From Acidobacteriota bacterium (GTDB lineage: Bacteria > Acidobacteriota > UBA890 > WLXD01): DNA of 64,000 bases. Both the position numbers and the translations under genes were made by a program. The notes below the pieces were generated by a model, which ran no database searches, was not told the DNA's origin, and worked only from the letters and a program-made list of their open reading frames with translations. This document shows positions 7,955-49,766 of the stretch, piece after piece. The stretch lies in NCBI GenBank assembly GCA_029263295.1, contig JAJCXT010000053.1:3889-67888 (forward strand). Direction: 5' to 3'. Within the stretch, counting starts at the first letter, position 1, and each line of letters starts with the position of its first letter.

Positions 7955-7978
7955 TTGCTCACGCTGCCTGAAGAGAAG

Positions 7979-8467: not shown

Positions 8468-8491
8468 CGCCGCTGGGGCGCTTCAGGCCGC

Positions 8492-9581: not shown

Positions 9582-10790
9582 CTAGATGGTCGAATAGACG
9601 ATCTGGTTGGATCGACCGATCACCTCGCCCGTGGCTGGATCCAAGGCTTCAGCCTCGATCACCACAACCGCACCCGAATCGTGGGTGATGATGGCGTTGA
9701 AGGCCAGTCCTAGGGAGTCTGTGGCGCTCGAGCTCGAATTGGCCAGCTCAGCGCGGTCGAAGAGTGACGTGTCGGTAGTGTCGCTGACGATGCGGAATCG
9801 GACAGGAACACCTACCAGGACCGCACCATTGCGTTCGCTGAACACCCTTGCGGTCATACCAGTCGGCAAATCGACCGTACCAGTGCCCGTCGTGGACCCG
9901 TCGTCCAGCGTCAAGGAAACTGACGTCTGCGCCTGGATCTCCGTGGTGATCATGGTGATCGGCCCGGACTCCGCGATCAGGTCACCGGTCAAGGGGTCGA
10001 GTAGACGGGCGCTAACCACGACCTCGCCGACTCCATTGACGAACAGAGTGTTGTAAGCCTCGCCGGACGAGTTGGTCAGCGATTTCGGCGGGGCGCCGAG
10101 GTACGCGGTTCCCTGCCCGGAGCTGGCCGTAGTATCGCGGCCGATCCTGAAACGAATCTCCATGCCGCCGATAACCGTGCCGGTGGTGTCACGCGCCGTA
10201 CCGACGATAAGCGCGTTCGTCGGTGCGGTGGTGACCACGTTGGGGAGATCCCCGCCCGCGATACGGAATGTGATGTCGACGGAGCCTTCCAAGGCAACGC
10301 GCTCGAAGTCAATCGTCACGCGGCTCGCGACGTCCGCGATCCATGCGGTGACCTCTGCTGTGCCCGCTGAACTACTGCGCACGGCAACCACGGCCACACC
10401 TTCGAAGGTGGTCACGGGCGTGCTGGCCCCGGCCGTCGTGGGGTCCGCGCCGCTGGCGCGAACACTGCCGAGGTTCGTTGCGAAGTTGACGGCAATGCCG
10501 TTGGCGATGGGATTGCCCGACGTGTCGACCGCGCTCGCTCTCACGAGAACGTCCGTTGTCCCATCCGCCGGAACGCTGCCCCCCTGGCCAGCAAGGCTGA
10601 TAACGCCACTGAATGTCCCGCTGGTGTTCGGGGTGGTGCCCGTCAGGGAATTATTGGGACCTGCCGGATCGCTGAGGCCAGAACAGCTCACGAGAACCAG
10701 CAGCAGGAAGACTACGCTCGCGGCTGCTGACCCGCGGCCGGATCGCCCAGTTAGTCGAGAAAGTGTCGATTGACGCATGGCCTTCCTCAA
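9582..10790 (-). CDS. lipoprotein with about 3 bacterial Ig-like (Big/invasin-type) repeats
   Basis: 402 aa with a signal peptide and lipobox LLVLVS-C-SG. The first module (ADGTTDVLVRASAVDTSGNPIANGIAVNFATNLG...GVAVVAVRSSSAGTAEVTAWI) looks Big_1-like. Two further modules share [IV]RFRI..DTT and VV[VI].A..LDP.TG..I. The start overlaps the stop of the upstream lipoprotein gene by 4 nt. Confidence 0.6.
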   Translation of the reverse strand: MRKAMRQSTLSRLTGRSGRGSAAASVVFLLLVLVSCSGLSDPAGPNNSLTGTTPNTSGTFSGVISLAGQGGSVPADGTTDVLVRASAVDTSGNPIANGIAVNFATNLGSVRASGADPTTAGASTPVTTFEGVAVVAVRSSSAGTAEVTAWIADVASRVTIDFERVALEGSVDITFRIAGGDLPNVVTTAPTNALIVGTARDTTGTVIGGMEIRFRIGRDTTASSGQGTAYLGAPPKSLTNSSGEAYNTLFVNGVGEVVVSARLLDPLTGDLIAESGPITMITTEIQAQTSVSLTLDDGSTTGTGTVDLPTGMTARVFSERNGAVLVGVPVRFRIVSDTTDTSLFDRAELANSSSSATDSLGLAFNAIITHDSGAVVVIEAEALDPATGEVIGRSNQIVYSTI

Positions 10791-11434
10791 TTGGAGCCCC
10801 CTTGACGACCGCCGGCACCGCGACCGGCGCCCTCGTCACCCGCGTAGTTGGCGAATTGAATGGTGATCGCACCCTGCACGGCGACCTGATCGCCCGCGAC
10901 AGTGTGACCAAAGAAGCGCAGGGTGGCGTCGACGGTGACCGTCGGGAAGCCGGTGTCGGGCTCGAAACCCGGTGAGATCAGATGAGAAAGGGGCGGCTGC
11001 AACTTCTGTGATGCGGGCACCAGGGTGATCGTGACGGTCGTAGTGCGTTCCGTGACCACTCCATTGGGAGTGACCTGCACTTTGGCGACCAGTGCGCGCT
11101 GCATCCCAGCAGGTAGCCTTTCGCCTCCGTCCGTGCGGGCGTACGTCACTTCGTAGCGCTCGATCACGATCTCTTGCAACTCCGGCGCGGTGGTGTTGTT
11201 GGAGCTCTTGAGGCGGGCAACGAAGGAAGCCACGACCGGAGTGTCGGAGACCGTACCGTCATCGTTGACGACATCGCCGAAATTCCCTCCAACCGCGGAG
11301 AGACTCGTCAGGATCAACGAGACCGGGGCAACGGTGTTGTCAATATCGCCCGGCGCCTTGCAGCCGGCCAGGAGGGTCAGGACAAGCAGGACACCAACTG
11401 TGGATATCCCGCGCATCACGTTGGGGGTACGCAT
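10787..11434 (-). CDS. lipoprotein of unknown function, coupled to pilQ
   Basis: 215 aa with lipobox LTLLAG-C-K, a beta-rich body and a Gly/Arg-rich tail (GDEGAGRGAGGRQGGSN). The ATG lies 2 nt after the pilQ stop. I recognise no family. Confidence 0.5.
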   Translation of the reverse strand: MRTPNVMRGISTVGVLLVLTLLAGCKAPGDIDNTVAPVSLILTSLSAVGGNFGDVVNDDGTVSDTPVVASFVARLKSSNNTTAPELQEIVIERYEVTYARTDGGERLPAGMQRALVAKVQVTPNGVVTERTTTVTITLVPASQKLQPPLSHLISPGFEPDTGFPTVTVDATLRFFGHTVAGDQVAVQGAITIQFANYAGDEGAGRGAGGRQGGSN

Positions 11435-11436
11435 GG

Positions 11437-12930
11437 TTATTGCTCCAGGATCCTTGGCGTGATGAAGATCAGCAACTCGTTGTTCTGCTGCGCGGTGTCG
11501 CGACTCTTGAAGAGGTTCCCGAGAAGGGGAACGCGGTGCAGGAACGGCACCCTCCGTTCGTCCTCGGTGGCCGACATCTGGAAGATGCCACCGATGACTG
11601 TGGTGCCGCCGTCGCGGACGAGAAGCTTGGTCACCGCCCGACGAGTGAAGATCGTGGGAATACCGAGCACCTGGTTGCCGAAGTCCGGCTCGCTCTTGTC
11701 GACCACGATATCCAGCATCACCGTGTGATCGGCGGTGATCTGAGGCGTGACGGCGAGCGACAGGTTGGCGTTAATGAACGTGATGGATGCGGTGTTGTCG
11801 ATCAGCGTCTGCACCGGGATGCGACGGCCACTCTCGATCGAGGCCGGGACATTGTCCTGGGCCGTGACTTTCGGTGAAGAAATGATCTTGCCTCGCCCTT
11901 CCTCCTCCATCGCCGTCAGGGCCACATCGAGGCGGAACGTGTCGAGAATGCTACCCATTGTCAGTGCCACGCCAGCCGTCGGGTTGGTGGCCGGCAGGTT
12001 CACCGCGAAGGGCACGCCGCTGATGCCGCTGGGCTGGGGCCCCGTTCCCGCGTTCGTGTTCCCGACAATGCCTACGTCGTTGGGAAAGACGAGGCCCGTT
12101 GTATTGCCGTGCGCCGCATCGGCAACTGCGCCGAAGCCCCACTGAATTCCCAGCGAACGGCTGAAGTTCTTCGTAGTCTCGACTATCCGAGATTCGATGA
12201 GCACCTGCGGCGCCGCGATATCGAGCGCGGCAATAAGCTCGTTGATCTCGCTGAGCGCCGCCGGCGTGTCTTTGATGATGAGGGAGTTCGTGCGGACATC
12301 GACGATCACCTCGCCACGCTGCGACAGCTGCGGTTCCACCACCGGCTGCAGCTCCGTGGCATCGGCATAGGAGAGCCGAACCGCGGTCGTCTCGAGCGGC
12401 GTGGCGAGCTCACGTTGCTCCGCCAGCAGGGCGCGGTCACCGGCTTCAGCAGCCAGGGTGCCCAGCGACGCGACGCGCACGATGTTGTCGTCCACCTGGT
12501 AGCCGAAGCGATGCGACTTCAGGATCGCCTCGAAGGCGACGTCCCAGGGGACGTCGAACAGGCGCACAGTGACAGGCCCCGCAAGGTCGGGGTCGACGAC
12601 GACGTTCAGACCGGTCAACTGCGAGAAGAACCGTGAGACGTCGCGGATGTCCGTGCCGACGAAGTTGATGTCGATCGGGTAACCGGTGAGGTCAGCCGAA
12701 CGCAGAATGTCCGACTCCAGGGGAAGCTGCCCTGCCGCGATACGCTCGTCCTGCAAAGCTGCGACAGGACCCGGGATTCCTGACTGCGCCGCCGACTGGG
12801 AGTCCTGTTGCCAGGCCCCTGCCAGCCCCGGCAGCGCGAACAGCATGAGCGCAGACACGACCAGCCGCCGTCCAACTGGGAGCACGCGCGGCGACATCTT
12901 CTGAAGCTGATGTTCTGGTTCTGGGATCAT
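11437..12930 (-). CDS. pilQ: type IV pilus secretin PilQ
   Basis: 497 aa. The secretin N-domains (..VRLFDVPWDVAFEAILKSHRFGYQVDDNIVRVASL..) and the C-terminal secretin core (GGTTVIGGIFQ...VPFLHRVPLLGNLFKSR...ELLIFITPRIL) are present. It is the last gene of pilMNOPQ. Confidence 0.9.
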   Translation of the reverse strand: MIPEPEHQLQKMSPRVLPVGRRLVVSALMLFALPGLAGAWQQDSQSAAQSGIPGPVAALQDERIAAGQLPLESDILRSADLTGYPIDINFVGTDIRDVSRFFSQLTGLNVVVDPDLAGPVTVRLFDVPWDVAFEAILKSHRFGYQVDDNIVRVASLGTLAAEAGDRALLAEQRELATPLETTAVRLSYADATELQPVVEPQLSQRGEVIVDVRTNSLIIKDTPAALSEINELIAALDIAAPQVLIESRIVETTKNFSRSLGIQWGFGAVADAAHGNTTGLVFPNDVGIVGNTNAGTGPQPSGISGVPFAVNLPATNPTAGVALTMGSILDTFRLDVALTAMEEEGRGKIISSPKVTAQDNVPASIESGRRIPVQTLIDNTASITFINANLSLAVTPQITADHTVMLDIVVDKSEPDFGNQVLGIPTIFTRRAVTKLLVRDGGTTVIGGIFQMSATEDERRVPFLHRVPLLGNLFKSRDTAQQNNELLIFITPRILEQ

Positions 12931-12936
12931 TCGCTA

Positions 12937-13587
12937 TTACTCTTGGTTGCCGGTTACCAAACGCTTTGAAACTCGCCGCGTGCTGCGGGCGCCGAGAAGG
13001 TCCTCTACTTCCTGCTCGAAGATCACTTCGTCGCCCGAAATCTCGACCACACGCCCGTCGTACAGTGCGGCTCCGACCTCGATGAAGTAGCTGCGCTGAT
13101 CGAGGCCGACGATCATTGCCTGCCAGCGCCCCTGGTAGCTCGCTGTCGCGGCAACCTTGATCTCGTTGATCAGAAAGCCCGCGAGGCCAGCCGGCCGCAA
13201 CTCGGGCGCCTCGATTTCGCGGCGCCGGGCCGCAAGGAGACTGCGGAACGGGTCACGACGGCCGCCGGGCTGATACACGAAGTTCTGGCCCGACAACAGC
13301 AGTCGCTGCTCGGCGAGGATCTCCTCCACCAGGCGCAACGCGGCCTCCTGCTCATCCGTAGTATCGATATTGATCGTGGGCAGCGTGGAAGGATCGACGA
13401 CACCGGCATCGCGTTCGTCCGCCTGCTCGGCCTCCACCTGGCCGACTTCAGCCGCTGCCTCTGTTGCCTGAATCGGATCCTGGGCTACGGCCACGGAAGC
13501 GCTCGCCTGCGCGCCGTACGCAACGGCACCAATGCCGATAGCCGAGACAGAAACGAGGAACATGAGCAGCGGACCTGAAACTCTCAT
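12937..13587 (-). CDS. pilP: pilus assembly protein PilP-like
   Basis: 216 aa with a signal peptide, an acidic linker and a C-terminal beta-domain (..GGRRDPFRSLL....LINEIKVAATASYQGRWQAMIVG..YFIEVGAALYDGRVVEISGDEVIFEQ). Positioned between pilO and pilQ. ATGA overlap with pilO. Confidence 0.65.
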   Translation of the reverse strand: MRVSGPLLMFLVSVSAIGIGAVAYGAQASASVAVAQDPIQATEAAAEVGQVEAEQADERDAGVVDPSTLPTINIDTTDEQEAALRLVEEILAEQRLLLSGQNFVYQPGGRRDPFRSLLAARRREIEAPELRPAGLAGFLINEIKVAATASYQGRWQAMIVGLDQRSYFIEVGAALYDGRVVEISGDEVIFEQEVEDLLGARSTRRVSKRLVTGNQE

Positions 13588-14183
13588 TGGCGCAACAAGT
13601 CCTCGAGATCGTCGCCGAGCTCGTCGGTTCCATCATCGATGAACGTGAACGTCATGGCCGTGACCGTGGCGGACACTGTCGCCGTGTCACCGGCATTCGC
13701 CGCGATATCAACTTCGTCGATATTGATGATGCGCGAGAACTTGCCGATGCGATCAAAGAAGCGGGCGAGATCGTGGTAGGTGCCCACCAACTCCAGCTCG
13801 ATCGGAGACTCGGCATAGAACTCGTAGGGCACCGCGTCGCGAAAGGCGAGTTCGCGGAGCCCGAGGTTCGACTGCGCCGCGATCGTCCCCAGGCCGCGCA
13901 ACAACTCCGCCGTCTCGAAGTCCTCAGGAAGGATGTGGGAAAGAATCTCGAGTCGTTCGTCCAGCGACCGCATCTCTTCGCGCAGCTCTGGCAGGTTGAC
14001 CGCCACCGCCTGCATCTCCTGGACCTCAGTGCGCAGCGTGGCGATCTGGTTGCTGAGCTGGCGCGTCTGCGCGGCGCTGGGCCGCCAGAACTGCACGTAG
14101 TAGATACCCGTCAGGACGATGCACAGGACAGCGCTCACGAGCCACTGCTGTTTCGGAGGAAGCTCACTCAACGACTTCGCCAT
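13584..14183 (-). CDS. pilO: type IV pilus assembly protein PilO
   Basis: 199 aa with one TM, a coiled coil and a C-terminal ferredoxin-like domain (IELELVGTYHDLARFFDRIGKFSRIINI). TGATG overlap with pilN. Confidence 0.8.
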   Translation of the reverse strand: MAKSLSELPPKQQWLVSAVLCIVLTGIYYVQFWRPSAAQTRQLSNQIATLRTEVQEMQAVAVNLPELREEMRSLDERLEILSHILPEDFETAELLRGLGTIAAQSNLGLRELAFRDAVPYEFYAESPIELELVGTYHDLARFFDRIGKFSRIINIDEVDIAANAGDTATVSATVTAMTFTFIDDGTDELGDDLEDLLRQ

Positions 14184-14791
14184 CAGGACCCTCCCCCGCC
14201 GGCCGCCGGCGTTTCAGACATGGCCGCCGCCATCGTCGGGCGGAAGTCGAGCGAGATATAGAAATTCTGAGCGTCCCCGCTGTCACCGAGCGACCGCAGC
14301 CGCACACCCTGGAAGTACTCGGAACCCTCGAGGTTCGTGACGAAATCGGCGACGTTGTTCTCCGACATGGCCGATCCGTTGATCTCGACGGACGCCTCAT
14401 CGAGCTGCAGCCGGGTCAGCCAAACACCATCAACCATCAGTCGACTGACCTGGTCCAGCAACATCACCGGCCCGGTCTGGTTCGCCTTCAGATCGACGAT
14501 CACCTGCATCTTTCGCTGCATCAGATCCGCACGGTCCTGCAGCTGCGCAACCTGATCGGCGATCTCTTGCAGGCGCGCTCGTTCCGCCTGGATGCCGGCA
14601 AGTTCCATGCGCAGCTCAGTGAGACCCTGGCTCTGCATGAACCATGCCGTCCCGATGCCACCGAGCACGACGACGAAGAGCGCCGCCATCCCGGCCTGTG
14701 TCATGCCGAGGCTGACATCCGGCATGCGCAGCGAGCGCAGTCCCTTGCTCTGCTTTTCAGCGTCACCGCCCAGCAGATTGATGCGAATCAT
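14183..14791 (-). CDS. pilN: type IV pilus assembly protein PilN
   Basis: 202 aa. N-terminal MIRINLL (the PilM-binding motif), one TM and a coiled coil. Confidence 0.8.
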   Translation of the reverse strand: MIRINLLGGDAEKQSKGLRSLRMPDVSLGMTQAGMAALFVVVLGGIGTAWFMQSQGLTELRMELAGIQAERARLQEIADQVAQLQDRADLMQRKMQVIVDLKANQTGPVMLLDQVSRLMVDGVWLTRLQLDEASVEINGSAMSENNVADFVTNLEGSEYFQGVRLRSLGDSGDAQNFYISLDFRPTMAAAMSETPAAGGGGS

Positions 14792-14798
14792 CGGCGCA

Positions 14799-15941
14799 TC
14801 ACTCCATCACCCCGCGCAGTGCCAACCCCAGGGCCACTGTCGACTCTGGAGCGCTGTCGCGGATGTATTCAGGATCGAACATCCCTTCGGGGATATGGAC
14901 CCGACGCAAGGGATCGAAGATCTCCACTGGCCATCCCATTCGGTTCTGCAGGCGTTCGGCCAGGTCCGTGATGTGAGCACCGCCGCCGGCCAGAAACACG
15001 GCATCGAAATGCTCGCGCATGGCCTGTGCCTGGTAGAAGTCGAACGTCTTGCTGATCTCGCCGATGATCCGATCCGAGACCTGCCCGATCACCTCCAACA
15101 CCCGCGGATCGGTAGCCGCGTCCTGCAGGTCCGCGCCCTCTTCTCCGTCTTCGGACCACTCGGTCAGGCTGTGATCCTGGGCCGAACCGTCGTCGGCAGC
15201 GGCGTTACGACTGACCCGGCGCAATACCTCTTCGGCGTCGAAGGCGTCCAGCATGAACTGTCGCTGCAAGGCCACCACGTACTGCTGCATGCCGATCGCG
15301 ATGTCGCGCCAGAATGACGGATTCCCGCCTTCCAGTACCGCCATGTTGATAACGGAAGAGCCGAGGTTCAGGATCGCGACATCCTCAAACTGGCGCTCTG
15401 GATAGTTGAACTCGAAGGCGTTCTGCACGGCGAACGCGTCGATATCCATGATCGTCGCGGTACGCTTGGCCGCCTCGATGACCGCCACGTGCTCGTCGAC
15501 TCGCTCGCGCTTCGCGGCCACCAGCACGACGTCCATGCTGTCGGAGTCTTCGTCTTCGCCAAGTATCGCAAAGTCCAGGTCGACATCGTCGATGTCGAAC
15601 GGAATATGTTCGTCGGCCTCGTACGGCAGCGCTTCGCGCAATGCATCGGCATCCTGCCGTGGCATCGTGACGCGGCGCACGATCACCGCGTTGCCGGACA
15701 CTGAGGCGGCAACGAAGGGACTCTTGACCTTGTGCTGCTCGAGCAGCTCGCTGATCGTCTGGGTTACTGGTTCTTCGTTGGTGATCGCACCGTCGACGAT
15801 CGTCTCCTCCGGCAACTCAGCTACGCCGAAGTGAACCAACTCGAAGGGCATTTCACCCTTCGTCGGACGCAACGCGACCATCTTGATCGCATGCGACCCG
15901 ATATCCAGCCCAATAATTTGTCGGGTCCGGTTCAGGAACAT
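14799..15941 (-). CDS. pilM: type IV pilus assembly ATPase-fold protein PilM
   Basis: 380 aa, actin-like fold. IIGLDIGSHAIKMVAL...VAASVSGNAVIVRRVTMP..; first gene of the cluster. Confidence 0.9.
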   Translation of the reverse strand: MFLNRTRQIIGLDIGSHAIKMVALRPTKGEMPFELVHFGVAELPEETIVDGAITNEEPVTQTISELLEQHKVKSPFVAASVSGNAVIVRRVTMPRQDADALREALPYEADEHIPFDIDDVDLDFAILGEDEDSDSMDVVLVAAKRERVDEHVAVIEAAKRTATIMDIDAFAVQNAFEFNYPERQFEDVAILNLGSSVINMAVLEGGNPSFWRDIAIGMQQYVVALQRQFMLDAFDAEEVLRRVSRNAAADDGSAQDHSLTEWSEDGEEGADLQDAATDPRVLEVIGQVSDRIIGEISKTFDFYQAQAMREHFDAVFLAGGGAHITDLAERLQNRMGWPVEIFDPLRRVHIPEGMFDPEYIRDSAPESTVALGLALRGVME

Positions 15942-15988
15942 CTATTCCCACCCCAGTTCAGACCCGGCTTGCTTTCCGCCCGGCCCTA

Positions 15989-16018
15989 TTTGTACTGGTC
16001 TACAGCAGTCACTGTCAA
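15989..16018 (-). promoter_or_regulatory. candidate sigma70-type promoter for pilM operon
   Basis: On the minus strand there is a perfect TTGACA (16018-16013), an 18-nt spacer and TACAAA (15994-15989). This sits about 45 nt upstream of the pilM ATG, in the only AT-richer stretch of the 270-bp gap. Sequence match only. Confidence 0.3.
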
Positions 16019-16211
16019 GCGGTACCGGAAAAAAGTGCTCTCGAATGCGCAGACATGCGCAGAAGAAGACACCTCGACTTCGATGCGGACGACAGGGGAC
16101 GGCCGATCGCGCATGCCGTCATGCCTAGACGGCCACGGCCCCGGCTATGCCGGGGGTGGAGATAGGCGACGGGCTCTAGCAGTCCGTGGTCGAAGTCTGA
16201 CGGGCTGCTCG

Positions 16212-16604
16212 CTAGCGGTAGGCGACCGCCTCGATCTCGACGCGGACGCCCTTGGGCAGCCCGCTCACAGCCACTGTGGCGCGCGCCGGCGGGACTTCGC
16301 CGAAGTAGCGGCCATATACGTCATTGACGACGGCGAAGTCATCCATGCTCTGCAGAAAGACCGTGGTCTTGACGACCCGATCGAAGCCACTCCCCGCCTC
16401 CTCCAGAACCGCCTGAAGGTTCTTCATCACCTGCTCCACCTGCTCCTCGACCGCCCCGTCGAGCAGTTCCCCCGTGCTCGGCACGAGAGGGATCTGCCCG
16501 GCAAGGAACAGCAACTCTCGATCACCGAGCGGCAACGCGATGGCCTGAGAGTACGGCCCCAGTGCGGCAGGTGCGTGGTCAGTATGGATGGCACGGTGAG
16601 ACAT
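16212..16604 (-). CDS. ridA: RidA/YjgF family reactive intermediate deaminase
   Basis: 130 aa. APAALGPYSQAI....AGQIPL...G....G...Q..QV..NL..VLEEAG....VVKTTVFL..M.DF..VN.VY..YF....PAR..V.V..LPKGV.VEIE. Confidence 0.9.
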   Translation of the reverse strand: MSHRAIHTDHAPAALGPYSQAIALPLGDRELLFLAGQIPLVPSTGELLDGAVEEQVEQVMKNLQAVLEEAGSGFDRVVKTTVFLQSMDDFAVVNDVYGRYFGEVPPARATVAVSGLPKGVRVEIEAVAYR

Positions 16605-16631
16605 TAGGCAACCTCGGGGGTGGGTTTGCTG

Positions 16632-18857
16632 CTAGGGGTGTCCAGCTCGAGGAGCGCGACCGCGACGAACCTGCCGCACGCCGTCAATGGAGTAGATCGC
16701 GGACGAGATGCGCCGGAGATGGCCCGAATCTGACACCTCCAAGACGACCTCCACGACTCCACGATAAGGCTCCATCTTGGACTCGATGTGGCGAATATTA
16801 CTTCCGGCTTCGGCAATAACGGACGTGAGTTGCGCGAGCAGACCCTTGCGATCGTCAACATCCACGCGCAGCCTGATGGGTTGCACCGCCCCCTCGGGCG
16901 GCTGCCAGTCGACATCGATCCGACGCTCGTCAGTAGCCAGGAGCCGACTGAGATTGCCGCAGTCCACCGCATGTACGGCCACGCCCTTGCCTCGAGTCAC
17001 GTACCCGACGATCGGCTCGCCCGGCACCGGCCCGCAACAGCGAGCCCGGTAGACCATGATGCCGTCCATCCCGTGGACGCTGATGCTGTCCTGCGCGGTC
17101 CATCCCAGAGCGCGATCCACCAGCGCCCGCACGCGTGAAGGTCTGCGCTTGGCGCGCTCGTCGAGATCCTCGTCCGGCAGCAGGCGTCCCGCGATGGTGC
17201 GGGCGTCCATCTTGCCGAAGCCAACCGCGATGACGAGGTCTTCTCCCGTGGGCATGCCGAATTGCGACCCGAGACCAGCCAGAGTCCCGTCCGACAGCAG
17301 CTTCCGGAGCCGGAGCCCGTACTTGCGAAACTCTTTCTCGAGGATCTTGCGACCAACCTCGAAGCTACGCTCGCGCTCCTGCTTGTTGATCCAGTTCTTG
17401 ATGCGTGTGCGAGCGCGGCTGGTGTTGGCGATGTCGAGCCAGTCGCGACTCGGGGTCGCGTCGGCGCTCGTAACGATCTGCACGATGTCGCCGTTACGCA
17501 GTTCCTGGCGGAGCGGCACGAGTTTGCCGTTGACCTTCGCACCGCTCGTCCTGAATCCGACCTCGCTGTGGATCAGAAAAGCGAAGTCAAGCGGCGTTGC
17601 GCCGCGGGCCATGGACTTCACGTCGCCCTTGGGCGTGAAGACGTAGACCTCGTCCGGGTAGAGATTGAGCTTCAAAGAGGAGAGAAACTCGCGCGGATCG
17701 GTCACGTCGCGCTGCTGGTCGACCAGCTGGCGCAGCCACACCAGCGGCTGGGTTTCGCTGTCGCTGTACTCAGCCCCCTCTTTGTATAGCCAGTGAGCCG
17801 CGATCCCCTCCTCGGCGACGCGGTGCATCTCCTCGGTCCGGATCTGCACCTCGAACGGCGTGCCGCTCTCGATAAGCGTCGTGTGCAGCGACTGATACAT
17901 GTTGCGCTTCGGCATGGCCAGGAAGTCTTTGAATCGACCGGGCACAGGACTCCAGCGGTTGTGGATGATGCCCAGCGCGCCGTAGCAGTTGCGCACCGAA
18001 TCGGTGATCACACGGTAGGCAACAACGTCGTAAACCTGGTCCAGGTCCACATGGCGCTTCCGCATCTTGCGATGGAGACTCAGCAGCCCCTTCACGCGAT
18101 GGGTCACCCGACACGGGATCTCGTGCTCGGCCATCGTCGCCTCGATTCGAGCTTCTTTCTCCGCAGTCGTTTCCCGCGCCTGCCGCAACCGTTCTTGAAC
18201 TGCCGCTTCGAGCTGCTCGAACGCCTCGGGCTCGAGGTAGCGGAAGGCGAGGTCCTCGAGCTCCGTGTGCAGACGCCACATGCCCAGCCGGTGAGCCAGC
18301 GGCGCGTAGATGTCCTGGGTCTCGCGAGCGATGCGGCGCCGCTTGCCCTCGGGCAGCCAGTGCAGCGTCCGCATGTTGTGGAGTCTGTCTGCCAATTTCA
18401 CCAGCAGGACGCGCACGTCATCCACCATCGCCAGCAGGAGCTTGCGGAAGTTGTCCGCCTGCTCCTCCAGCTTGGAGTTGAACTCCATCTGGCCGATCTT
18501 CGTCACTCCCGCGACAAGCTTTACGACCTCCGCGCCGAAATCCTCGGTCATCTGCTCGGAGCTGAAGTCGGTGTCCTCAAGCACGTCATGGAGCAGACCA
18601 ACGGCGATGCTCGCCGCGTCTAGGTGCCACTCACAGAGGATCGTCGCCACCGCGAGCGGGTGCTCCACGTACGGTGCCCCCGACCTGCGCGCCTGCCCTT
18701 CGTGGGCGCTATCGGCGACCTCGTAGGCCCGACGTACCAGGTCGACGTCTGCCTCCGAGTGCCCCTGGGCCACGCGCGCAAGAAGCCCATGGATATCCGG
18801 GGATCCCGTCGACGGCTGTGACGTGGTCGGTGCGGGCAACGCCAGCTCCAGAGGCAA
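16632..18857 (-). CDS. rel: bifunctional (p)ppGpp synthetase/hydrolase, RelA/SpoT family
   Basis: 741 aa. The HD hydrolase domain (PYVEHPLAVATIL..LLHDVLEDT), synthetase domain (..YRVITDSVRNCYGALGIIHNRW..DFLAMPKRNMYQSLHT), TGS and C-terminal ACT domains are all present. The start at 18857 is TTG. Confidence 0.95.
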   Translation of the reverse strand: MPLELALPAPTTSQPSTGSPDIHGLLARVAQGHSEADVDLVRRAYEVADSAHEGQARRSGAPYVEHPLAVATILCEWHLDAASIAVGLLHDVLEDTDFSSEQMTEDFGAEVVKLVAGVTKIGQMEFNSKLEEQADNFRKLLLAMVDDVRVLLVKLADRLHNMRTLHWLPEGKRRRIARETQDIYAPLAHRLGMWRLHTELEDLAFRYLEPEAFEQLEAAVQERLRQARETTAEKEARIEATMAEHEIPCRVTHRVKGLLSLHRKMRKRHVDLDQVYDVVAYRVITDSVRNCYGALGIIHNRWSPVPGRFKDFLAMPKRNMYQSLHTTLIESGTPFEVQIRTEEMHRVAEEGIAAHWLYKEGAEYSDSETQPLVWLRQLVDQQRDVTDPREFLSSLKLNLYPDEVYVFTPKGDVKSMARGATPLDFAFLIHSEVGFRTSGAKVNGKLVPLRQELRNGDIVQIVTSADATPSRDWLDIANTSRARTRIKNWINKQERERSFEVGRKILEKEFRKYGLRLRKLLSDGTLAGLGSQFGMPTGEDLVIAVGFGKMDARTIAGRLLPDEDLDERAKRRPSRVRALVDRALGWTAQDSISVHGMDGIMVYRARCCGPVPGEPIVGYVTRGKGVAVHAVDCGNLSRLLATDERRIDVDWQPPEGAVQPIRLRVDVDDRKGLLAQLTSVIAEAGSNIRHIESKMEPYRGVVEVVLEVSDSGHLRRISSAIYSIDGVRQVRRGRAPRAGHP

Positions 18858-25647: not shown

Positions 25648-26106
25648 TCAGGACTGGGACCCTAGCAGGCCCTTGAGTTCGTCCATGAACGCGTTCACGT
25701 CGCGGAATTGGCGATACACCGACGCGAAGCGCACGTAGGCAACCTCGTCGATATCGCGCAGCTGATCCATCACCTGTTCGCCGATCTGCTGGCTGTCGAT
25801 CTCCCGCTCTCCCTGCTCCTGGGCGACCGCCTGCACCTCGTCGCAGATGGACTCGAGTTGCGAGCCTGTGACCGGCCGCTTCTCGCAGGCACGAAGCAGC
25901 CCGTCCATCAGCTTGGCGCGATCGAACCGCTCGCGGCTCCCGTCTTTCTTCACCACCATCAGTGGAGTCAGTTCGACCTGTTCGTACGTCGTCATCCGCC
26001 GGCCGCAATCGAGGCACTCGCGACGACGACGGATTGCCGTGCCATCGCGACTATCACGCGAATCCACGACCTTGTGTTTGCTCAGACCGCAATAGGGGCA
26101 CTTCAT
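25648..26106 (-). CDS. nrdR: transcriptional repressor NrdR
   Basis: 152 aa. MKCPYCG....VVDSR.......IRRRRECL.CG.R.TTYE zinc ribbon plus an ATP-cone. Confidence 0.95.
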   Translation of the reverse strand: MKCPYCGLSKHKVVDSRDSRDGTAIRRRRECLDCGRRMTTYEQVELTPLMVVKKDGSRERFDRAKLMDGLLRACEKRPVTGSQLESICDEVQAVAQEQGEREIDSQQIGEQVMDQLRDIDEVAYVRFASVYRQFRDVNAFMDELKGLLGSQS

Positions 26107-26172
26107 GACGCTTCTCTACCTTCGCCTCGAACGCCCGCCACGGGCAGTGAGGAGCCGCACGATACGGTCGGA

Positions 26173-27207
26173 TTATACCGCCCGCGGCGGCTGTTTCTCT
26201 GCGCCTAGATTCCGCCCCAGGCCGCGGAACGTCTCAGAGACAAGGCCGCCGCGCACGAGCAGAACGAGGCCGACGGCGGCTAGCGGAAGGAAAGCGACCG
26301 CGTGACTGATGATCGCGTAGGCCACCGCCGCGTCATTGTCCACGCCAAACAGCCCTACCAGGCCGAGTTGCGCGACCTTGTGAAATGCGCCCACTCCCGC
26401 GGGCGTCGGGACGGCGGCGCCCACCACGAGCAATGTCAGGAGCGGAATCGCGCCGTACCAGGGGACCGCGATGTCGACGGCCGCGAACAGCAGCACATAG
26501 GTAAGCACCACAGTCGCCCAGAGGGCGACCGAGCGCAGCAACACCCGCAAGACAGCCATCCGACTGCGCAACCCGGACATACCCGTGAGAAAGGAAACGA
26601 GTACTCTCGCCGCCGCAGCCGGCAGCAACCGCTCAACACCCGACTCCACCCTTCGACGGATGGACGTATTGCGCGCGGCAGCGATCCCCACAACGCCACC
26701 CACCGCAAGAGCTGCTAGCAGCCCCATGCCGGCAGACCGCAGCACCGTCATCGTGGCGGCGCCGTCGACGGTCAGTGCTGTTGGGGCCGGCGCCAGCAGG
26801 AGATAGCCCGCCAGCAGGGTGAGGATCGCAACCACGTCGAACAGCCGCTCGAGAACTACGGAGCCAAGTCCGGCGCTCGCGGCGACGGGCGCCCGGCGCG
26901 AGAGAAACACCGGCCGCGCTACCTCCCCCAGCCTGCCCGGCAGCAGCACCGACACCGACCAGCCCATCAGAATCGCGGCCCAGAGGTCGCGCACGGCATA
27001 GCTCCCGAGCGGTGACAGCAACTGCCGCCAGCGCCAGGCACGCTGCAGACTCGTGAACGCGACCGTCAGGCATGCCAGGGCCACCAGGCGCAGGTCAGCC
27101 TGGCGCAGAAGGATGGCGACCTGAGACAAATCCGCGCGGCGCAGGAACCATGCGACCAGGGCCACTGCCAGGACAACGCCAACCACGAACTGTGTTCGCC
27201 TGGACAT
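26173..27207 (-). CDS. flippase-like membrane protein (lysylphosphatidylglycerol synthase TM region / UPF0104 family)
   Basis: Polytopic. ..FLRRADLSQVAILLRQADLRLVALACLTVAFTSLQRAWRWRQLL.. is typical of the family. I prefer ATG 27207 (MSRRTQFVV) over the track start at 27312. Confidence 0.65.
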   Translation of the reverse strand: MSRRTQFVVGVVLAVALVAWFLRRADLSQVAILLRQADLRLVALACLTVAFTSLQRAWRWRQLLSPLGSYAVRDLWAAILMGWSVSVLLPGRLGEVARPVFLSRRAPVAASAGLGSVVLERLFDVVAILTLLAGYLLLAPAPTALTVDGAATMTVLRSAGMGLLAALAVGGVVGIAAARNTSIRRRVESGVERLLPAAAARVLVSFLTGMSGLRSRMAVLRVLLRSVALWATVVLTYVLLFAAVDIAVPWYGAIPLLTLLVVGAAVPTPAGVGAFHKVAQLGLVGLFGVDNDAAVAYAIISHAVAFLPLAAVGLVLLVRGGLVSETFRGLGRNLGAEKQPPRAV

Positions 27208-27327
27208 TGGATCGGGTTCTCGGTTGGCGGTGCGCAGGAGATTCCGCCGAACCGTACCGGCTGGGCAGTTGCGTCGCAATCGAATAGACTGCGCGGCTCT
27301 ATCCGCCGCCAATCCACGCAGCGAGCC

Positions 27328-28074
27328 ATGTCCACTAACCCCGACGTCGCCAACGCGATCGCGGCGGCTGGACGCGACCTGAACAGCCGCGGCCTACTCG
27401 CCTCGTACGAGGGCAACATCAGTGTCCGGCTGGACTCTGAGCGTCTGCTCACAACGCCCACCGGGGTGCATAAAGGCCGCCTCGACCCGGGCGAAATGGT
27501 AGTGGTGGATCGGCGCGGCGCGGCCATCGGTGGCGGCCAGCCCTCGTCCGAAATCAAACTGCACCTGGCCATCTACGAGGAACGCGAGGACGCGGGCGCG
27601 ATCGTCCACGCCCATCCGCCCACGGCTACCGGGTACGCCGTCGCTGGCAAGGAGCTGCCCCGCGCCGCACTCGCGGAGACCGTCGCGATGTTCGGGTGTG
27701 TGCCGGTGGCGCCCTACGGCACTCCTTCGACGGAAGCTCTCGCCGACTCGGTGCGCGAGCCGATCCGGACTTTCGACGTCGTTCTGTTGGCCAACCATGG
27801 GGCGGTTACTGTGGGCGCTGACCTGGAGCAGGCCGTCGAGCGCATGGCACAGCTCGAGCACTTCGCCCACATCGCCCTCGTTGCCCATCTACTGGGAGGC
27901 GCGCACAGCTTCAGCCCCGCCCAGGTAGACGAACTCTCGCGCCTGCGACAATCTGCCGGTGCCGGGCCCGTCCCTTCAGCCTGTTACCCTGCGGCAGACG
28001 AATCCGGCAACATTACGCTCACCCGCAAGGAACTCGTCGGTTTGATCGCCGACGCCGTACGACGCATCCGCTAG
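27328..28074 (+). CDS. class II (Zn-dependent) aldolase/adducin-family enzyme with C-terminal encapsulation-peptide-like extension
   Basis: 248 aa. The FucA/RhaD-like core has YEGNISVR, PSSEIKLH (Glu), VHAHPP (2 His) and LANHGAVTVG (His). It is followed by a Gly/Pro/Ala linker (aa 209-228) and the amphipathic helix ITLTRKELVGLIADAVRRIR (aa 229-248). It sits directly upstream of the BMC shell genes. Confidence 0.85.
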   Translation: MSTNPDVANAIAAAGRDLNSRGLLASYEGNISVRLDSERLLTTPTGVHKGRLDPGEMVVVDRRGAAIGGGQPSSEIKLHLAIYEEREDAGAIVHAHPPTATGYAVAGKELPRAALAETVAMFGCVPVAPYGTPSTEALADSVREPIRTFDVVLLANHGAVTVGADLEQAVERMAQLEHFAHIALVAHLLGGAHSFSPAQVDELSRLRQSAGAGPVPSACYPAADESGNITLTRKELVGLIADAVRRIR

Positions 28075-28122
28075 CATGGAGGCGGATGACGGCCGGCGCG
28101 CTTGGAACCAGGAGGAACTGTG

Positions 28123-28413
28123 ATGGCAGAATACGGGGAAGCCCTCGGGCTGGTGGAAACACGTGGCTTCGTGGGGATGGTGGAGGCCTCCGACGCGATG
28201 GTGAAGGCCGCCAAGGTCACGATCATCGGTTACGAGAAGGTCGGCGGTGGCCTCGTTACAGCGATCGTTCGAGGCGATGTCGCTGCCGTGAAATCGGCGA
28301 CCGACGCTGGCGCTGCCGCGGCACGCCGCGTAGGCGAGTTGGTCTCGGTGCACGTGATCCCGCGTCCGCACGACAGTCTTGAAGAGACTCTGCCGATCGG
28401 ACAGAGCACCTAG
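28123..28413 (+). CDS. bacterial microcompartment shell protein BMC-H (PduA/EutM/CcmK fold)
   Basis: [83 protein letters not shown] is a canonical PF00936 sequence. ATG 28123 follows AGGAGG (28110-28115). The track start at TTG 28102 was rejected. Confidence 0.92.
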
Positions 28414-28431
28414 CCGAACGGAGTCGCAGCA

Positions 28432-28704
28432 GTGTTCCTGGCACGCGTCGTCGGTTCTGTCGTGGCCACTCATAAGGACCCGCGGCTGGAGAGCCTGAAG
28501 CTCCTCCTGGTGGTACCGGTGACTCCTGACGGCGAAGACGAGGGCGGCTATCAGGTGGCGGTCGACACTGTGAATGCGGGGTTTCGCGAAACGGTGATCT
28601 GCGTGCGCGGATCGTCCGCGCGCATGGCGCATGGCATCGGCGATCGGCCGGTCGACACCGCCATCATCGGCATCGTCGATAGCGCCGATCTAGACGAAGC
28701 CTGA
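28432..28704 (+). CDS. BMC vertex protein BMC-P (EutN/CcmL family), paralog 1
   Basis: 90 aa. MFLARVVGSVVATHKDPRLESLKLLLV.P......GGYQVAVDTVNAG..E.V....GSSAR......PVDTAIIGIVDS. GTG start with GGAG 8 nt upstream. Confidence 0.9.
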   Translation: MFLARVVGSVVATHKDPRLESLKLLLVVPVTPDGEDEGGYQVAVDTVNAGFRETVICVRGSSARMAHGIGDRPVDTAIIGIVDSADLDEA

Positions 28705-28715
28705 GCTGACGCGCC

Positions 28716-29012
28716 GTGGACCTCGCGCGCGTCGTCGGCACCGTGGTGAGCGTGGTCAAGGACCCGCAACTTGTCGGCATCAAGCTACTGCTGATTCGTC
28801 CGGTCGACCCACAGGGCCAGTTCACGGGAAGCGCCATGATCGCGCTCGATGCGATCGGCGCGGGTCCTGGTGAGACAGTCTTCTACGTAACCGGTAAGGA
28901 AGCGTCGTTCGCGTTCCTGCCAGAGCACGTGCCGGCGGATGTTTCGGTTGTCGCGATCGTCGACCACGTGGACGAGTCCACCGACGCTCGCGGCAAGCGG
29001 AGGCAGACATGA
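28716..29012 (+). CDS. BMC vertex protein BMC-P (EutN/CcmL family), paralog 2
   Basis: 98 aa. MDLARVVGTVVSVVKDPQLVGIKLLLIRPVD...MIALDAIGAGPGETVFYVTG.E........PADVSVVAIVDHV plus the basic tail ESTDARGKRRQT. Confidence 0.9.
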   Translation: MDLARVVGTVVSVVKDPQLVGIKLLLIRPVDPQGQFTGSAMIALDAIGAGPGETVFYVTGKEASFAFLPEHVPADVSVVAIVDHVDESTDARGKRRQT

Positions 29013-29281
29013 TTCTCGGACGCGTCGTGGGAACTGTCGTCGCGTCGCAGAAACACGAGAAGTACGCCGGCAGTAAGCTCCTCCTCGTGCAGCCCGTGAA
29101 CTTGGCGGGCGACGATGATGGCGATGAGTTGATCGCTGTCGACAGCGTAGGCGCGGGGGCGGGCGAGACCGTTCTTGTCGTGCAGGAGGGCCGGTCGACC
29201 AGCATGGCCATGGGGACCGACCTGGCGCCCGCCAATGCCGCCATCGTTGGCGTCGTCGATCAGGTAGACCTGCACGACTGA
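29009..29281 (+). CDS. BMC vertex protein BMC-P (EutN/CcmL family), paralog 3
   Basis: 90 aa. MILGRVVGTVVASQKHEKYAGSKLLLVQPVN.....ELIAVDSVGAGAGETVLVVQEGRS......PANAAIVGVVDQV. ATGA overlap with paralog 2 and a GGAGG SD. Confidence 0.9.
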   Translation: MILGRVVGTVVASQKHEKYAGSKLLLVQPVNLAGDDDGDELIAVDSVGAGAGETVLVVQEGRSTSMAMGTDLAPANAAIVGVVDQVDLHD

Positions 29282-29326
29282 TCGCGTCCGCAGAATCTCA
29301 TCAGTGACAATCTCAGGAGAACGTTC

Positions 29327-30256
<930 letters not shown>

Positions 30257-30262
30257 CGGCCG

Positions 30263-30907
30263 GTGGCCGCCACGACACTGCGCGTCGGACTCACCGGCAA
30301 CATCGGCGCGGGCAAGTCCACCGTGGCGGCGCTGCTGGATGGACCCGGCTTCATGATCGTGGATGCCGACCGCCTCGGCCACCTGGTCCTCGAGGATGAT
30401 GAGGCGCGCGAGCTGATCGTCGATCAACTCGGTGCGGACATCCTCGACGCCACCGGCAGAATCGACCGAACGCTTCTGGGCAAGCTCGTTTTCAGTGATT
30501 CAGGGGCTCGCGAGCGGCTCGAAGCGATCGTGCACCCGCGAATCAGGGCGACCGAGGATGAGCGCGTTGCCACGTGGGGCGTGACCCCGGGCATCGCGGT
30601 GACTGAGGCTGCCCTCCTGGTCGAGACCGGCGGCCACGAGCGCTATCACCGGCTGGTGGTGGTGAACGCACCGCGGCACACGCGGGTGGCGCGCCTGGCC
30701 GTTCGAGGTATGCGCCCGGCAGATGCTGAACGGCGCATGGCGGCCCAGATGTCCGACGCCGACAAGGCAGCTGCCGCGGACTATGTCGTAGACAACGGTG
30801 GAGATCCCGAAGACACCGCCGCACAGGTCGCGACGGTCCGTGAGCATCTCCAGGAGGACCTGCGCGCACTCTGCGCCGGGCTCAGCCTTCCACCTCGCCA
30901 ACGGTGA
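30263..30907 (+). CDS. coaE: dephospho-CoA kinase
   Basis: 214 aa. VGLTGNIGAGKSTVAALL P-loop, then ..DADRLGH.... with typical CoaE length and layout. Confidence 0.85.
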   Translation: MAATTLRVGLTGNIGAGKSTVAALLDGPGFMIVDADRLGHLVLEDDEARELIVDQLGADILDATGRIDRTLLGKLVFSDSGARERLEAIVHPRIRATEDERVATWGVTPGIAVTEAALLVETGGHERYHRLVVVNAPRHTRVARLAVRGMRPADAERRMAAQMSDADKAAAADYVVDNGGDPEDTAAQVATVREHLQEDLRALCAGLSLPPRQR

Positions 30908-40954: not shown

Positions 40955-41093
40955 TCGACCTCCACGTCAGCCGTCTGTCCGGGCCAGCCCAGCCTGCCCC
41001 ATCCTGTTAATATAGCTCGATCTGGGCGCTGCCCGCTCTGGCAATTTGCGCCGGCCTTCATCGGTCTCTTCTCGTCTTGCACCAGGCCAGCCT

Positions 41094-41813
41094 ATGTCCG
41101 CACGCACCGTTATCCTGAACACCCTCGATCCCAGCGGTCAGCAGGGTTTGGCGATCGATGTGCAGGCAGCTTTTGAGGCCGGGGCCACCGACGTTATGCC
41201 CATCGCGACCTCAACTCTGGTCGACGGCGCGATGCACGCCGTCGACGCGAAGGTACTCGCGGCGACGCTGGCCGCGGCGTTGGAACACCCTGTTGAAGCG
41301 CTGCTCGTGGGACGCCTCCCGAGTTCCAAGGTCGCTGGCGTGATCGCTGCCGCCCTGGCCCACAACCTGCCCGAGACCATGGTCTTCGCGCCGGGCGAGT
41401 TTGTCCCTTCGCGGGCGTGGTTCGCCGGCTCGGCCGAAAGGCAGCAACGAGCCCACTTTCAGACCCTCACGCGCGAGTGCACCGTGGCGGTAATGACCGC
41501 TGCACAGGTCACGGCGTGGCTGGGCAACGGCGAGCTCGGCAACGAGCAGGCGGGCGAACACCTGTGTTCAGCGGGCGCCTACGCCTCCTGGATCCGCGAC
41601 GCTACGGGTTCTGTGCGTGCACTGGACCACATCATCACCGGCGAGCACAAAGCCGTCCTCGACTATCCTGGTATCAGCGACACCGAGCCCGACAGGATTC
41701 CCGGGGCGCTCACTTCGCTGCTCGCGGGCGGACTGACGCTGGAAGAAGCCGTCGCTGGCGCGCAGCGCCACGCCGCGTGCCCGAACACCAGCGGCGCCGC
41801 GGTTTGTCGTTAG
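41094..41813 (+). CDS. ribokinase-superfamily, ThiD/PdxK-like protein with degenerate active-site motifs
   Basis: VILNTLDPSGQQGLAIDVQAAFEAGA aligns to the ThiD motif AGTDPSGGAGIQADLKTFSALGA. The C-terminal DRIPGALTSLLAGGLTLEEAVAGAQ aligns to THGTGCTLSAA..G..L.EAV..A, but the GTGC anion-hole motif is lost. The start is trimmed to ATG 41094. Confidence 0.45.
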   Translation: MSARTVILNTLDPSGQQGLAIDVQAAFEAGATDVMPIATSTLVDGAMHAVDAKVLAATLAAALEHPVEALLVGRLPSSKVAGVIAAALAHNLPETMVFAPGEFVPSRAWFAGSAERQQRAHFQTLTRECTVAVMTAAQVTAWLGNGELGNEQAGEHLCSAGAYASWIRDATGSVRALDHIITGEHKAVLDYPGISDTEPDRIPGALTSLLAGGLTLEEAVAGAQRHAACPNTSGAAVCR

Positions 41814-45653: not shown

Positions 45654-46736
45654 TTAGAGGGAGTCTTCCATGCCGGCCGCGGCGACCTTTTCGCGCAGCG
45701 CCTTGATGTCCTGGGACCGGTCCAGACGGGCAACCAACAGCACGTCGCCCGCCCGCACTATCGCGAGCCCTTCTACGCCAAGCAGAGCAACCTTCTCGCC
45801 GGGCGCGTGGACGAGATTGCCGCTCGCGTCCAACGCCGCCACGCCACCGCGGGCGACGTTACCGCCGTCATCGGCCGGAAGCAGCTCGGCGAGTGCCTCC
45901 CACGAGCCGACGTCCGACCAGTCGAACTGGGCCTCCACACAGGCCACGTTCGTGGCCTGCTCCATGATGCCGTAGTCAATTGAAGTGGCAGGCATCGCTG
46001 CGTAGGCTGCGGCCCGCTCGGCCTCGTCGCTCGCGTCCAGCATGGCCGCTGCGGCGCTGGCGGCCTCAGGGAGATGTTGTTCCATCGCTGCCAGCAGCGC
46101 ACGGGACTCCCAGACGAACATGCCGCTGTTCCACATGAACGTCCCGGCATCGACGTATTCCTGCGCCGTCTTGCTGTCTGGCTTCTCGCGAAATGCCACT
46201 ACGTGGCGAACCGGGGCGGCCGCCTCCGGATCGATCTCCAGCGCTGCCGCCACTTCCACATAACCGTAGCCCGTCTCCGCGTAACGAGGCGGAACGCCGA
46301 AGGTCACGAGCGCACCCGTGCGCGCCGCCGCGCAGGCGGCCTCGGCCGAGCGTCGCAATCCATCGACGTCCTCGATGACATGGTCTGCCGGAAAGACCAG
46401 CATCAGCGAATCCGGGTCACGACGCTGCAACTCTGCCGCGGTCCAGGCGAGGCACGGCGCGGTGTTGCGTGCCTCCGGTTCGGCCAGCAGGTTGGCGGCC
46501 GGCAGGTCGGGCAGCTGCGCACGCGTCAGATCAGCGTAGCGCGCCCCGGTCACAACGAGGATCCGCTGTGGGTCGCCCACCAATGCCAGGCACCGGTTCC
46601 AGGTCTGCAGCATCATCGATTCATCGCCGATGATCGACAGGAACTGTTTGGGGTGGTCGTTACGCGACAGAGGCCAGAACCGTGTGCCGCTGCCACCTGC
46701 CATGATCACCGCATAGGCGTTCGCATCCAGTGCCAT
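45654..46736 (-). CDS. mannose-1-phosphate guanylyltransferase
   Basis: 360 aa. AVIMAGGSGTRFWPLSR...PKQFL nucleotidyltransferase N-terminus. No C-terminal PMI/cupin domain. Confidence 0.85.
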   Translation of the reverse strand: MALDANAYAVIMAGGSGTRFWPLSRNDHPKQFLSIIGDESMMLQTWNRCLALVGDPQRILVVTGARYADLTRAQLPDLPAANLLAEPEARNTAPCLAWTAAELQRRDPDSLMLVFPADHVIEDVDGLRRSAEAACAAARTGALVTFGVPPRYAETGYGYVEVAAALEIDPEAAAPVRHVVAFREKPDSKTAQEYVDAGTFMWNSGMFVWESRALLAAMEQHLPEAASAAAAMLDASDEAERAAAYAAMPATSIDYGIMEQATNVACVEAQFDWSDVGSWEALAELLPADDGGNVARGGVAALDASGNLVHAPGEKVALLGVEGLAIVRAGDVLLVARLDRSQDIKALREKVAAAGMEDSL

Positions 46737-46742
46737 GGGTCG

Positions 46743-48119: not shown

Positions 48120-48233
48120 GTGGCGCGCTCCTTGGAGAAAAATCTGGATAGCGGCCATTCTTCCACACCTTCGCCGCAGCTACGTGCCCCTGGCGGAGCA
48201 GAGCGAGGCGCGCCGGGCCTCTACGTCAATGCG

Positions 48234-49754: not shown

Positions 49755-49766
49755 TCTGCTCTCCCC

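Follow-up and report, generated by a model that had tools for sequence, protein, structure and literature searches.

Among the bacterial microcompartments (BMCs) catalogued by Sutter, Melnicki, Schulz, Woyke and Kerfeld (2021, Nat Commun 12:3809; PMC8217296), the type named ACI comprises 125 loci and has been found in Acidobacteria only. Its main locus encodes an aldolase (PF00596) that bears an encapsulation peptide at its C-terminus, a hexamer shell protein (BMC-H) and an adjacent triplet of pentamer shell proteins (BMC-P), as well as a hydroxyacid dehydrogenase and three further proteins for which no homologues are known, one of which is a cysteine-rich protein of about 80 amino acids with an N-terminal encapsulation peptide; the aldehyde dehydrogenase lies off the main locus, on a satellite locus in "most" ACI genomes (PMC8217296). 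We analysed a 64-kb stretch of contig JAJCXT010000053.1 from an Acidobacteriota bacterium (the whole of this stretch is called the window below), which carries a cassette of one class II aldolase gene, one BMC-H gene and three BMC-P genes at positions 27328-29281. We conclude with good, though not complete, confidence that the cassette represents an ACI-type main locus in a minimal, core-only form. It is not a new kind of locus: it is a core-only member of a type catalogued in 2021, and what is new about it lies at the level of member or subtype. ACI is among the larger microcompartment types without a described function, in a phylum that dominates many soils. An earlier note on this DNA, made from its letters, had called the function of the compartment undescribed, and our literature search for functional work on ACI agrees, since it returned only the 2021 catalogue and its preprint.

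The five genes all lie on the plus strand. The first encodes the signature enzyme, a class II (FucA-like, zinc-dependent) aldolase of 248 amino acids (27328-28074; PF00596, 6.4e-50), and is followed by the gene for a BMC-H of 96 amino acids, with an ATG start (28123-28413; PF00936, 2e-29; an alternative TTG start lies upstream at 28102). The BMC-P triplet then consists of proteins of 90 amino acids (BMC-P1, 28432-28704; PF03319, 9.5e-29), 98 amino acids (BMC-P2, 28716-29012; 7.5e-26) and 90 amino acids (BMC-P3, 29009-29281; 2.8e-26). Spacing along the cassette is 48, 18 and 11 nt, and the last two genes then share 4 nt, where the stop of BMC-P2 meets the start of BMC-P3. The earlier note had described exactly these closely spaced or overlapping genes, at exactly these coordinates. 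Its identification of an aldolase, a BMC-H and three BMC-P is likewise upheld by strongly positive profile searches, in which all five Pfam assignments are far over their cut-offs (170 bits against 22 for the aldolase), and the three aldolase motifs that it picked out (PSSEIKLH, VHAHPP and LANHGAV) are all present in the translation. The BMC-H protein also exceeds the cut-off of the NCBIfam EutM model (141.9 bits against 133) and carries the interface motifs DAMVKAA and PRPH, and BMC-P2 ends in a short, basic C-terminal tail. Co-occurrence of BMC-H and BMC-P, the general mark of a BMC locus, is found in the cassette with Pfam, and the proposal that a class II aldolase is here combined with the single BMC-H and the BMC-P triplet of a BMC locus is borne out.

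Against three relatives, the ratio of nonsynonymous to synonymous substitution rates (dN/dS) of the five genes is 0.01-0.34 overall (BMC-H, 0.008-0.044; aldolase, 0.14-0.34; BMC-P1, 0.09-0.14; BMC-P2, 0.16-0.28; BMC-P3, 0.04-0.22), and folD, the next gene downstream, gives comparable values. Because the ratios are this low and similar to those of folD, the five genes are real: they are functional genes under purifying selection and not chance open reading frames (ORFs). These values also bear on whether the cassette might be a relic, decaying or silent, of a microcompartment locus whose enzymes have been lost. Its gene count is indeed below that of the ACI main locus as published, and in some Acidiferrales-like genomes the aldolase gene has lost its neighbouring shell genes, but five intact reading frames under such constraint, a BMC-H that is 92-99% identical inside the window's clade, and an arrangement that is kept, with its 4-nt gene overlaps, down to 54% aldolase identity make decay highly improbable here.

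The aldolase has both an intact active site and a targeting peptide. In an alignment with 15 relatives E75, H94, H96 and H157 are invariant, and N30, T43, G46 and S73 are likewise invariant; in E. coli FucA these are the zinc-ligand and catalytic positions and those of the phosphate pocket. Among solved structures, L-fuculose-1-phosphate aldolases come closest (E ~2e-21). With E. coli FucA (PDB 1FUA and related entries) the window aldolase shares its fold family and the residues of the zinc site and phosphate pocket, whereas the window enzyme alone bears a C-terminal linker and targeting helix. The encapsulation peptide occupies residues 229-248 (28012-28071, plus strand; ITLTRKELVGLIADAVRRIR), and a flexible linker connects it to the enzyme. 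In an AlphaFold2 model the linker (210-232) is disordered or of low confidence, with a predicted local distance difference test score below 50 at residues 220-231, and the terminal helix spans 233-247; as modelled, this layout is typical of encapsulation peptides. The aldolase of a canonical ACI locus, L005, has a peptide that can be aligned with it (IRLTYRELTALIADAVKQLR), and the motif [ILV]x[LV][TS]xx[ED]Lxx[LI][IV]x[DE]A[VI] is present in all 68 of the 68 Acidobacteriota aldolases that were recovered. Neither this motif nor the corresponding profile matched any other ORF of the window or of the loci that were fetched.

Comparison with L005, where the distant aldolase homologue P0120 is encoded, ties the cassette to ACI. 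The gene order there is a TPR protein, a 91-amino-acid YHS-like cysteine protein, the aldolase, BMC-H, three BMC-P and a 2-hydroxyacid dehydrogenase, and the cassette of the window follows the core of this locus gene for gene (aldolase, BMC-H, BMC-P1, BMC-P2, BMC-P3). Identity between the two is 79% for BMC-H, 66% for BMC-P1, 47% for BMC-P2, 50% for BMC-P3 and 46% for the aldolase, and each BMC-P of the window pairs best with the L005 protein in the same position. ACI and the window are thus alike in having an aldolase with a peptide, one BMC-H with standard motifs and three BMC-P in the same order, and also in having a main locus that lacks aldehyde dehydrogenase, phosphotransacylase, BMC-T and regulator. 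When the window is held against the published definition, the host is of the expected phylum (among the matches listed, the nearest aldolases and syntenic loci are from Acidobacteriota metagenome-assembled genomes, MAGs); Pfam, alignment, motif and structural model agree on a PF00596 aldolase that ends in an encapsulation peptide; at least one BMC-H stands beside a BMC-P triplet; and aldehyde dehydrogenase is absent from the main locus, both in the 64 kb and within 10 kb of the Acidobacteriota loci.

We read the cassette as a main locus, and not as a satellite, because both the signature enzyme, complete with encapsulation peptide, and every member of the ACI shell set (BMC-H and the BMC-P triplet) are encoded in it; any further locus of the system would then be the satellite. 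The earlier note had offered a satellite shell locus as one of its two explanations, and that explanation does not survive this result. In its fuller form it would have the cassette supplement, with shell proteins and aldolase, a main locus of another type (PVM-like, SPU or HO-like) that is complete in itself and lies elsewhere in the genome. There is precedent, in that genomes of the HO (Haliangium ochraceum) type I have satellites carrying an aldolase and two BMC-P (PMC8217296), and single SPU3 and PDU1D loci are present in some Acidobacteria. On the other hand, the cassette is orthologous to and colinear with ACI main loci, and the sole PVM-like locus that we recovered, L064, differs in layout, so we regard a satellite role as quite unlikely. 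The HO type remains an instructive comparison. Its aldolase is the closest relative of the ACI aldolase (PMC8217296), and it resembles the window in its BMC-P triplet and in a division of components between main and satellite loci, which is published for HO and presumed here. In contrast to the window, however, the HO main locus contains aldehyde dehydrogenase and BMC-T, and the HO aldolase is on a satellite, the reverse of the arrangement that we describe.

The fucose/rhamnose metabolosomes of the planctomycete/verrucomicrobial (PVM) and PVM-like types, which the earlier note took as its frame of reference, have, like the window, a BMC-P triplet and a signature enzyme that is a class II aldolase ending in an encapsulation peptide (Erbilgin et al. 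2014; Sutter 2021). They differ from it in that acetate kinase, a regulator, sugar enzymes and an aldehyde dehydrogenase whose encapsulation peptide is N-terminal are encoded in the same locus. L064, a low-GC PVM-like locus, illustrates the difference: its order is P-P-P-aldehyde dehydrogenase-H-aldolase-acetate kinase, and genes for a LacI regulator and a fucose isomerase-like protein belong to it as well. The in-locus enzymes that define PVM and PVM-like loci (aldehyde dehydrogenase with peptide, PduL, and acetate kinase or alcohol dehydrogenase, usually with a regulator) are missing from the window. We therefore rejected a PVM or PVM-like assignment, as none of these partner enzymes is in the window and L064 shows them. 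That frame was wrong, and it is the ACI core to which the cassette corresponds (PMC8217296).

Absence of partner enzymes was examined in several ways. The window was gene-called and 49 ORFs were scanned against Pfam, and the part from 17 to 38 kb was also covered by Pfam scans of syntenic relatives. No match to PF00171, PF06130, PF00465, PF00871 or PF00389/PF02826 was found among the 49 ORFs of the 64-kb window, and in the same scan no BMC domain, BMC-T included, was found beyond the cassette. Searches with tblastn using EutE, EutD, EutG, EutL, EutS, EutK and the ACI 2-hydroxyacid dehydrogenase gave nothing further in the window, nor did a hidden Markov model (HMM) of aldehyde dehydrogenase built from two sequences (EutE and the L064 enzyme) or the PROSITE aldehyde dehydrogenase motifs, which were run on 986 ORFs of at least 300 amino acids from the window and related loci. 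Within 10 kb, EutE tblastn, HMM and PROSITE found no aldehyde dehydrogenase at any Acidobacteriota locus, and the sole match was in the PVM-like L064; the queries and seeds in these searches were E. coli EutE and the L064 enzyme, with no ACI dehydrogenase among them. The earlier note was thus right that the metabolosome partner enzymes are absent from all 64 kb, as Pfam, tblastn, HMM and PROSITE are all negative. Because separation of the aldehyde dehydrogenase from the shell genes is the known ACI pattern, its absence beside them is expected and not an anomaly.

These same negatives could be taken to mean, in line with the other explanation of the earlier note, that this is a true minimal compartment with the aldolase as its sole cargo and no aldehyde dehydrogenase anywhere in the genome, in which the shell might for instance confine the aldolase reaction or serve it in the condensation direction. 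Consistent with such an organelle, partner enzymes are found neither across the 64 kb nor, in any of eight relatives from the window's clade, within 10 kb of the locus, no other ORF of the window or the fetched loci has an aldolase-type encapsulation peptide, and the satellite dehydrogenase occurs in "most" and not all ACI genomes (PMC8217296). However, the ACI dehydrogenase is never beside the main locus, which makes its local absence uninformative; its peptide need not resemble that of the aldolase, and the negatives cover the window and the surroundings of the loci. We consider a genome-wide lack of the dehydrogenase unlikely, and continue with the reading of the cassette as a core-only ACI main locus.

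Several points weigh against that reading. The hydroxyacid dehydrogenase of the published main locus (PF00389/PF02826) has no match in the window or in its clade relatives, nor do homologues of two L005 proteins, the YHS-like one of 91 amino acids and the TPR protein, occur there, so that the small proteins of the type are missing as well. The distant aldehyde dehydrogenase that would complete the system in this genome and clade is an expectation carried over from the published ACI pattern, and expression and shell assembly are predictions from the genes. No BMC-T was found, which leaves passage of cofactors through the shell without an explanation. Finally, no NCBIfam class II aldolase equivalog model reached its cut-off with the window aldolase. 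OtnC, a decarboxylase, scored best (133 bits against a cut-off of 250), ribulose-1-phosphate aldolase gave 117 of 300 bits, L-ribulose-5-phosphate 4-epimerase was also among the best-scoring models, and the FucA equivalog TIGR01086 gave 90 bits against 400, well short of a FucA assignment. Since no equivalog is over its cut-off and the best model describes a decarboxylase, the aldolase chemistry proposed below is a tentative assignment.

The genes missing from the window can be placed by comparison with other genomes. A scan of species-representative genomes with the aldolase gave 79 loci, which were classed by tblastn and by a neighbour-joining aldolase tree, computed without bootstrap. They resolve into three lineages of Acidobacteriota, which have the core of five genes in common. 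Lineage A, the Vicinamibacterales type, has TPR protein, YHS-like protein, aldolase, BMC-H, three BMC-P and hydroxyacid dehydrogenase genes, with glmM-pdxJ before and nth-queE-queC after them. Lineage B, from Bryobacterales, Acidiferrales and other Terriglobia, has the aldolase, BMC-H and three BMC-P, or in some genomes the aldolase alone, with gdh before and ruvA-ruvB after. Lineage C, that of the window, has the aldolase, BMC-H and three BMC-P between nrdR, usually accompanied by an LPG-synthase gene, and folD-coaE. The three housekeeping neighbourhoods are different and internally conserved, and a dedicated regulator is near none of them. Representative neighbourhoods lie at 8946-13282 in L005, at about 8600-13400 in L036 and L059, and at 25648-30907 in the window.

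Among the loci sampled, the hydroxyacid dehydrogenase and the small proteins occur only in those of Vicinamibacterales type, and the dehydrogenase was not found within 10 kb of 14 Bryobacterales- or Acidiferrales-type loci with the aldolase-H-P-P-P order. They look like additions of lineage A and not a universal feature of ACI; the five genes would then be the shared ACI core, because the Bryobacterales and Acidiferrales loci also lack the extra genes. Lineage B loci such as L068, L071, L078, L081, L040, L058 and L066 match the window in gene content and order and have no dehydrogenase within 10 kb, although their aldolases are only 41-46% identical to that of the window and their peptides end with a few extra residues. 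Core-only loci of this kind are probably within the published ACI type, because the catalogue labels Solibacter/Solibacterales shell proteins as ACI (PMC8217296). From the Vicinamibacterales ACI loci, the window differs in lacking the 2-hydroxyacid dehydrogenase, the YHS-like cysteine protein of about 90 amino acids and the TPR protein, in an aldolase that is shorter (248 against about 270-306 amino acids) owing to its linker, in having its own conserved context, and in its position on a separate long branch of the aldolase tree.

Relatives within the window's own clade could be followed over a considerable range of aldolase identity: 82% in MAG OFTM137 (Acidobacteriota bacterium OFTM137; L001/L006), 71% in GCA_012271395 (L002), 68% in the 1.37-Mb metagenome contig ctg124487 from ENA (L086), 59% in Acidobacteria MAG B66T1B5 (L007, a partial locus whose contig ends in BMC-H), 57% in the closed 5.87-Mb chromosome OZ244217.1 (L004/L008) and 54% in the Logan contigs SRR25893899 and SRR25893898 (L087/L088). 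The cassette lies between nrdR and folD-coaE in every clade relative examined, and an LPG-synthase-like gene is usual after nrdR. We propose that it would be an old insertion at this site. Among the matches listed from a public protein collection, about 96 clusters are at least 54% identical to the window aldolase; the lineage is therefore widespread in metagenomes.

Lineage B shows two variants of the cassette. A Terriglobia MAG (L061, CAVXCR010000048.1) has two whole aldolase-H-P-P-P cassettes in tandem, at 10001-12405 and 14881-17311. In nine Acidiferrales-like loci (L024, L035, L036, L042, L044, L055, L059, L063 and L067) a solitary aldolase has kept its encapsulation motif; it is found at about 10001 (6322 in L024), between the glutamate dehydrogenase gene and, mostly, ruvA/ruvB. 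Sister genomes (L040, L046, L058 and L066) have the full cassette of aldolase, BMC-H and three BMC-P in a similar neighbourhood, and the shell genes of the solitary-aldolase genomes have been either lost or moved.

The flanks of the window cassette are housekeeping genes, as the earlier note had stated and Pfam supports. On the minus strand upstream lie nrdR (25648-26106) and a gene for a PF03706 (LPG_synthase_TM) membrane protein (26173-27312); because the L001 homologue is a product of 344 amino acids, the latter probably starts at an internal methionine codon at 27207 and not at 27312. The intergenic region between this divergent gene and the aldolase gene (27208-27327) is the presumed promoter region of the cassette. 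Scans of it for promoters and terminators were uninformative, with no notable sigma-70-like or terminator-like site, and there is no Rfam match within the 64-kb window that would indicate a riboswitch or other RNA control, nor a dedicated regulator near the cassette. Downstream on the plus strand are folD (29327-30256) and coaE (30263-30907), both identified with Pfam and both housekeeping genes, not cargo. FolD itself, at 309 amino acids, has about 20 extra residues in its NAD(P)-binding domain (177 residues over 157 Pfam profile positions).

In the window BMC-P3 and folD are 45 nt apart, and no terminator-like site was found at 29281-30907. In four clade loci the BMC-P3 stop overlaps the folD start by 4 nt (11988-11991 in L004/L008, 12322-12325 in L086, 5967-5970 in L087 and 6116-6119 in L088), an arrangement that suggests translational coupling of a shell gene to a housekeeping folate enzyme. 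The aldolase, the four shell genes, folD and coaE are probably one transcription unit. Because it is probably transcribed together with folD-coaE, the cassette may be constitutively expressed, and the housekeeping contexts of all three lineages, with no dedicated regulator, similarly hint at constitutive and not substrate-induced expression, which would be unusual among catabolic microcompartments. A stronger form of this idea joins it to the absence of cargo, so that five genes translationally coupled to folD-coaE would make a constitutive aldolase-only organelle with no dehydrogenase or other cargo genome-wide. We hold this to be improbable; if true, it would be the simplest natural metabolosome, with a logic other than aldehyde oxidation.

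How the encoded organelle might work can be outlined as follows. BMC-H and BMC-P are able to close a shell without BMC-T, as in synthetic HO and carboxysome shells, and HO BMC-H and BMC-P alone can form small shells. BMC-H of the cassette would tile the facets of a small icosahedral shell, and the three paralogous BMC-P would fill its vertices. The C-terminal amphipathic helix would draw the FucA-like zinc aldolase inside, where it would most likely cleave a phosphorylated ketose to dihydroxyacetone phosphate and a short reactive aldehyde. The shell would then hold the aldehyde until it is oxidised by an aldehyde dehydrogenase with its own encapsulation peptide, encoded elsewhere as reported for ACI. 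Within this scheme we infer what the aldolase acts on, that the shell assembles, that a distant dehydrogenase exists in this genome and that the genes are co-transcribed.

What the window adds to the published description is modest, and no new kind of compartment is involved: it refines ACI by pointing to a conserved unit of five genes (aldolase with peptide, BMC-H and three BMC-P) as the common core, and by placing that core among housekeeping genes, with a probable coupling to folD. For the expression of a natural shell of H and P proteins with a matched encapsulation peptide, the five genes are a compact candidate.

The remainder of the window is made up of housekeeping and transport genes, among them pilMNOPQ, aroA/aroK, relA, secDF, tgt, nrdR, folD, coaE, lapB, kdsA/B/C/D, pyrG, aminoacyl-tRNA synthetase genes, sucCD, and genes for DAHP synthase and TrpA (trpA). 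Five called ORFs gave no Pfam match (7685-9136, 41046-41813, 50930-51706 and 54135-55358 on the plus strand and 10787-11434 on the minus strand); in some of these Pfam-negative ORFs third-position GC is low, and they may be spurious. On the minus strand at 45654-50894, genes for a ManC-like nucleotidyltransferase, a phosphoglucomutase/phosphomannomutase, a DASS-family Na+ symporter and an enolase-superfamily (MR_MLE) enzyme stand in a row that could be a sugar-acid module; no link between this gene row and the microcompartment was found. Finally, the minus strand at 11437-15941 carries a type IV pilus assembly cluster in the order pilM-pilN-pilO-pilP-like-secretin.

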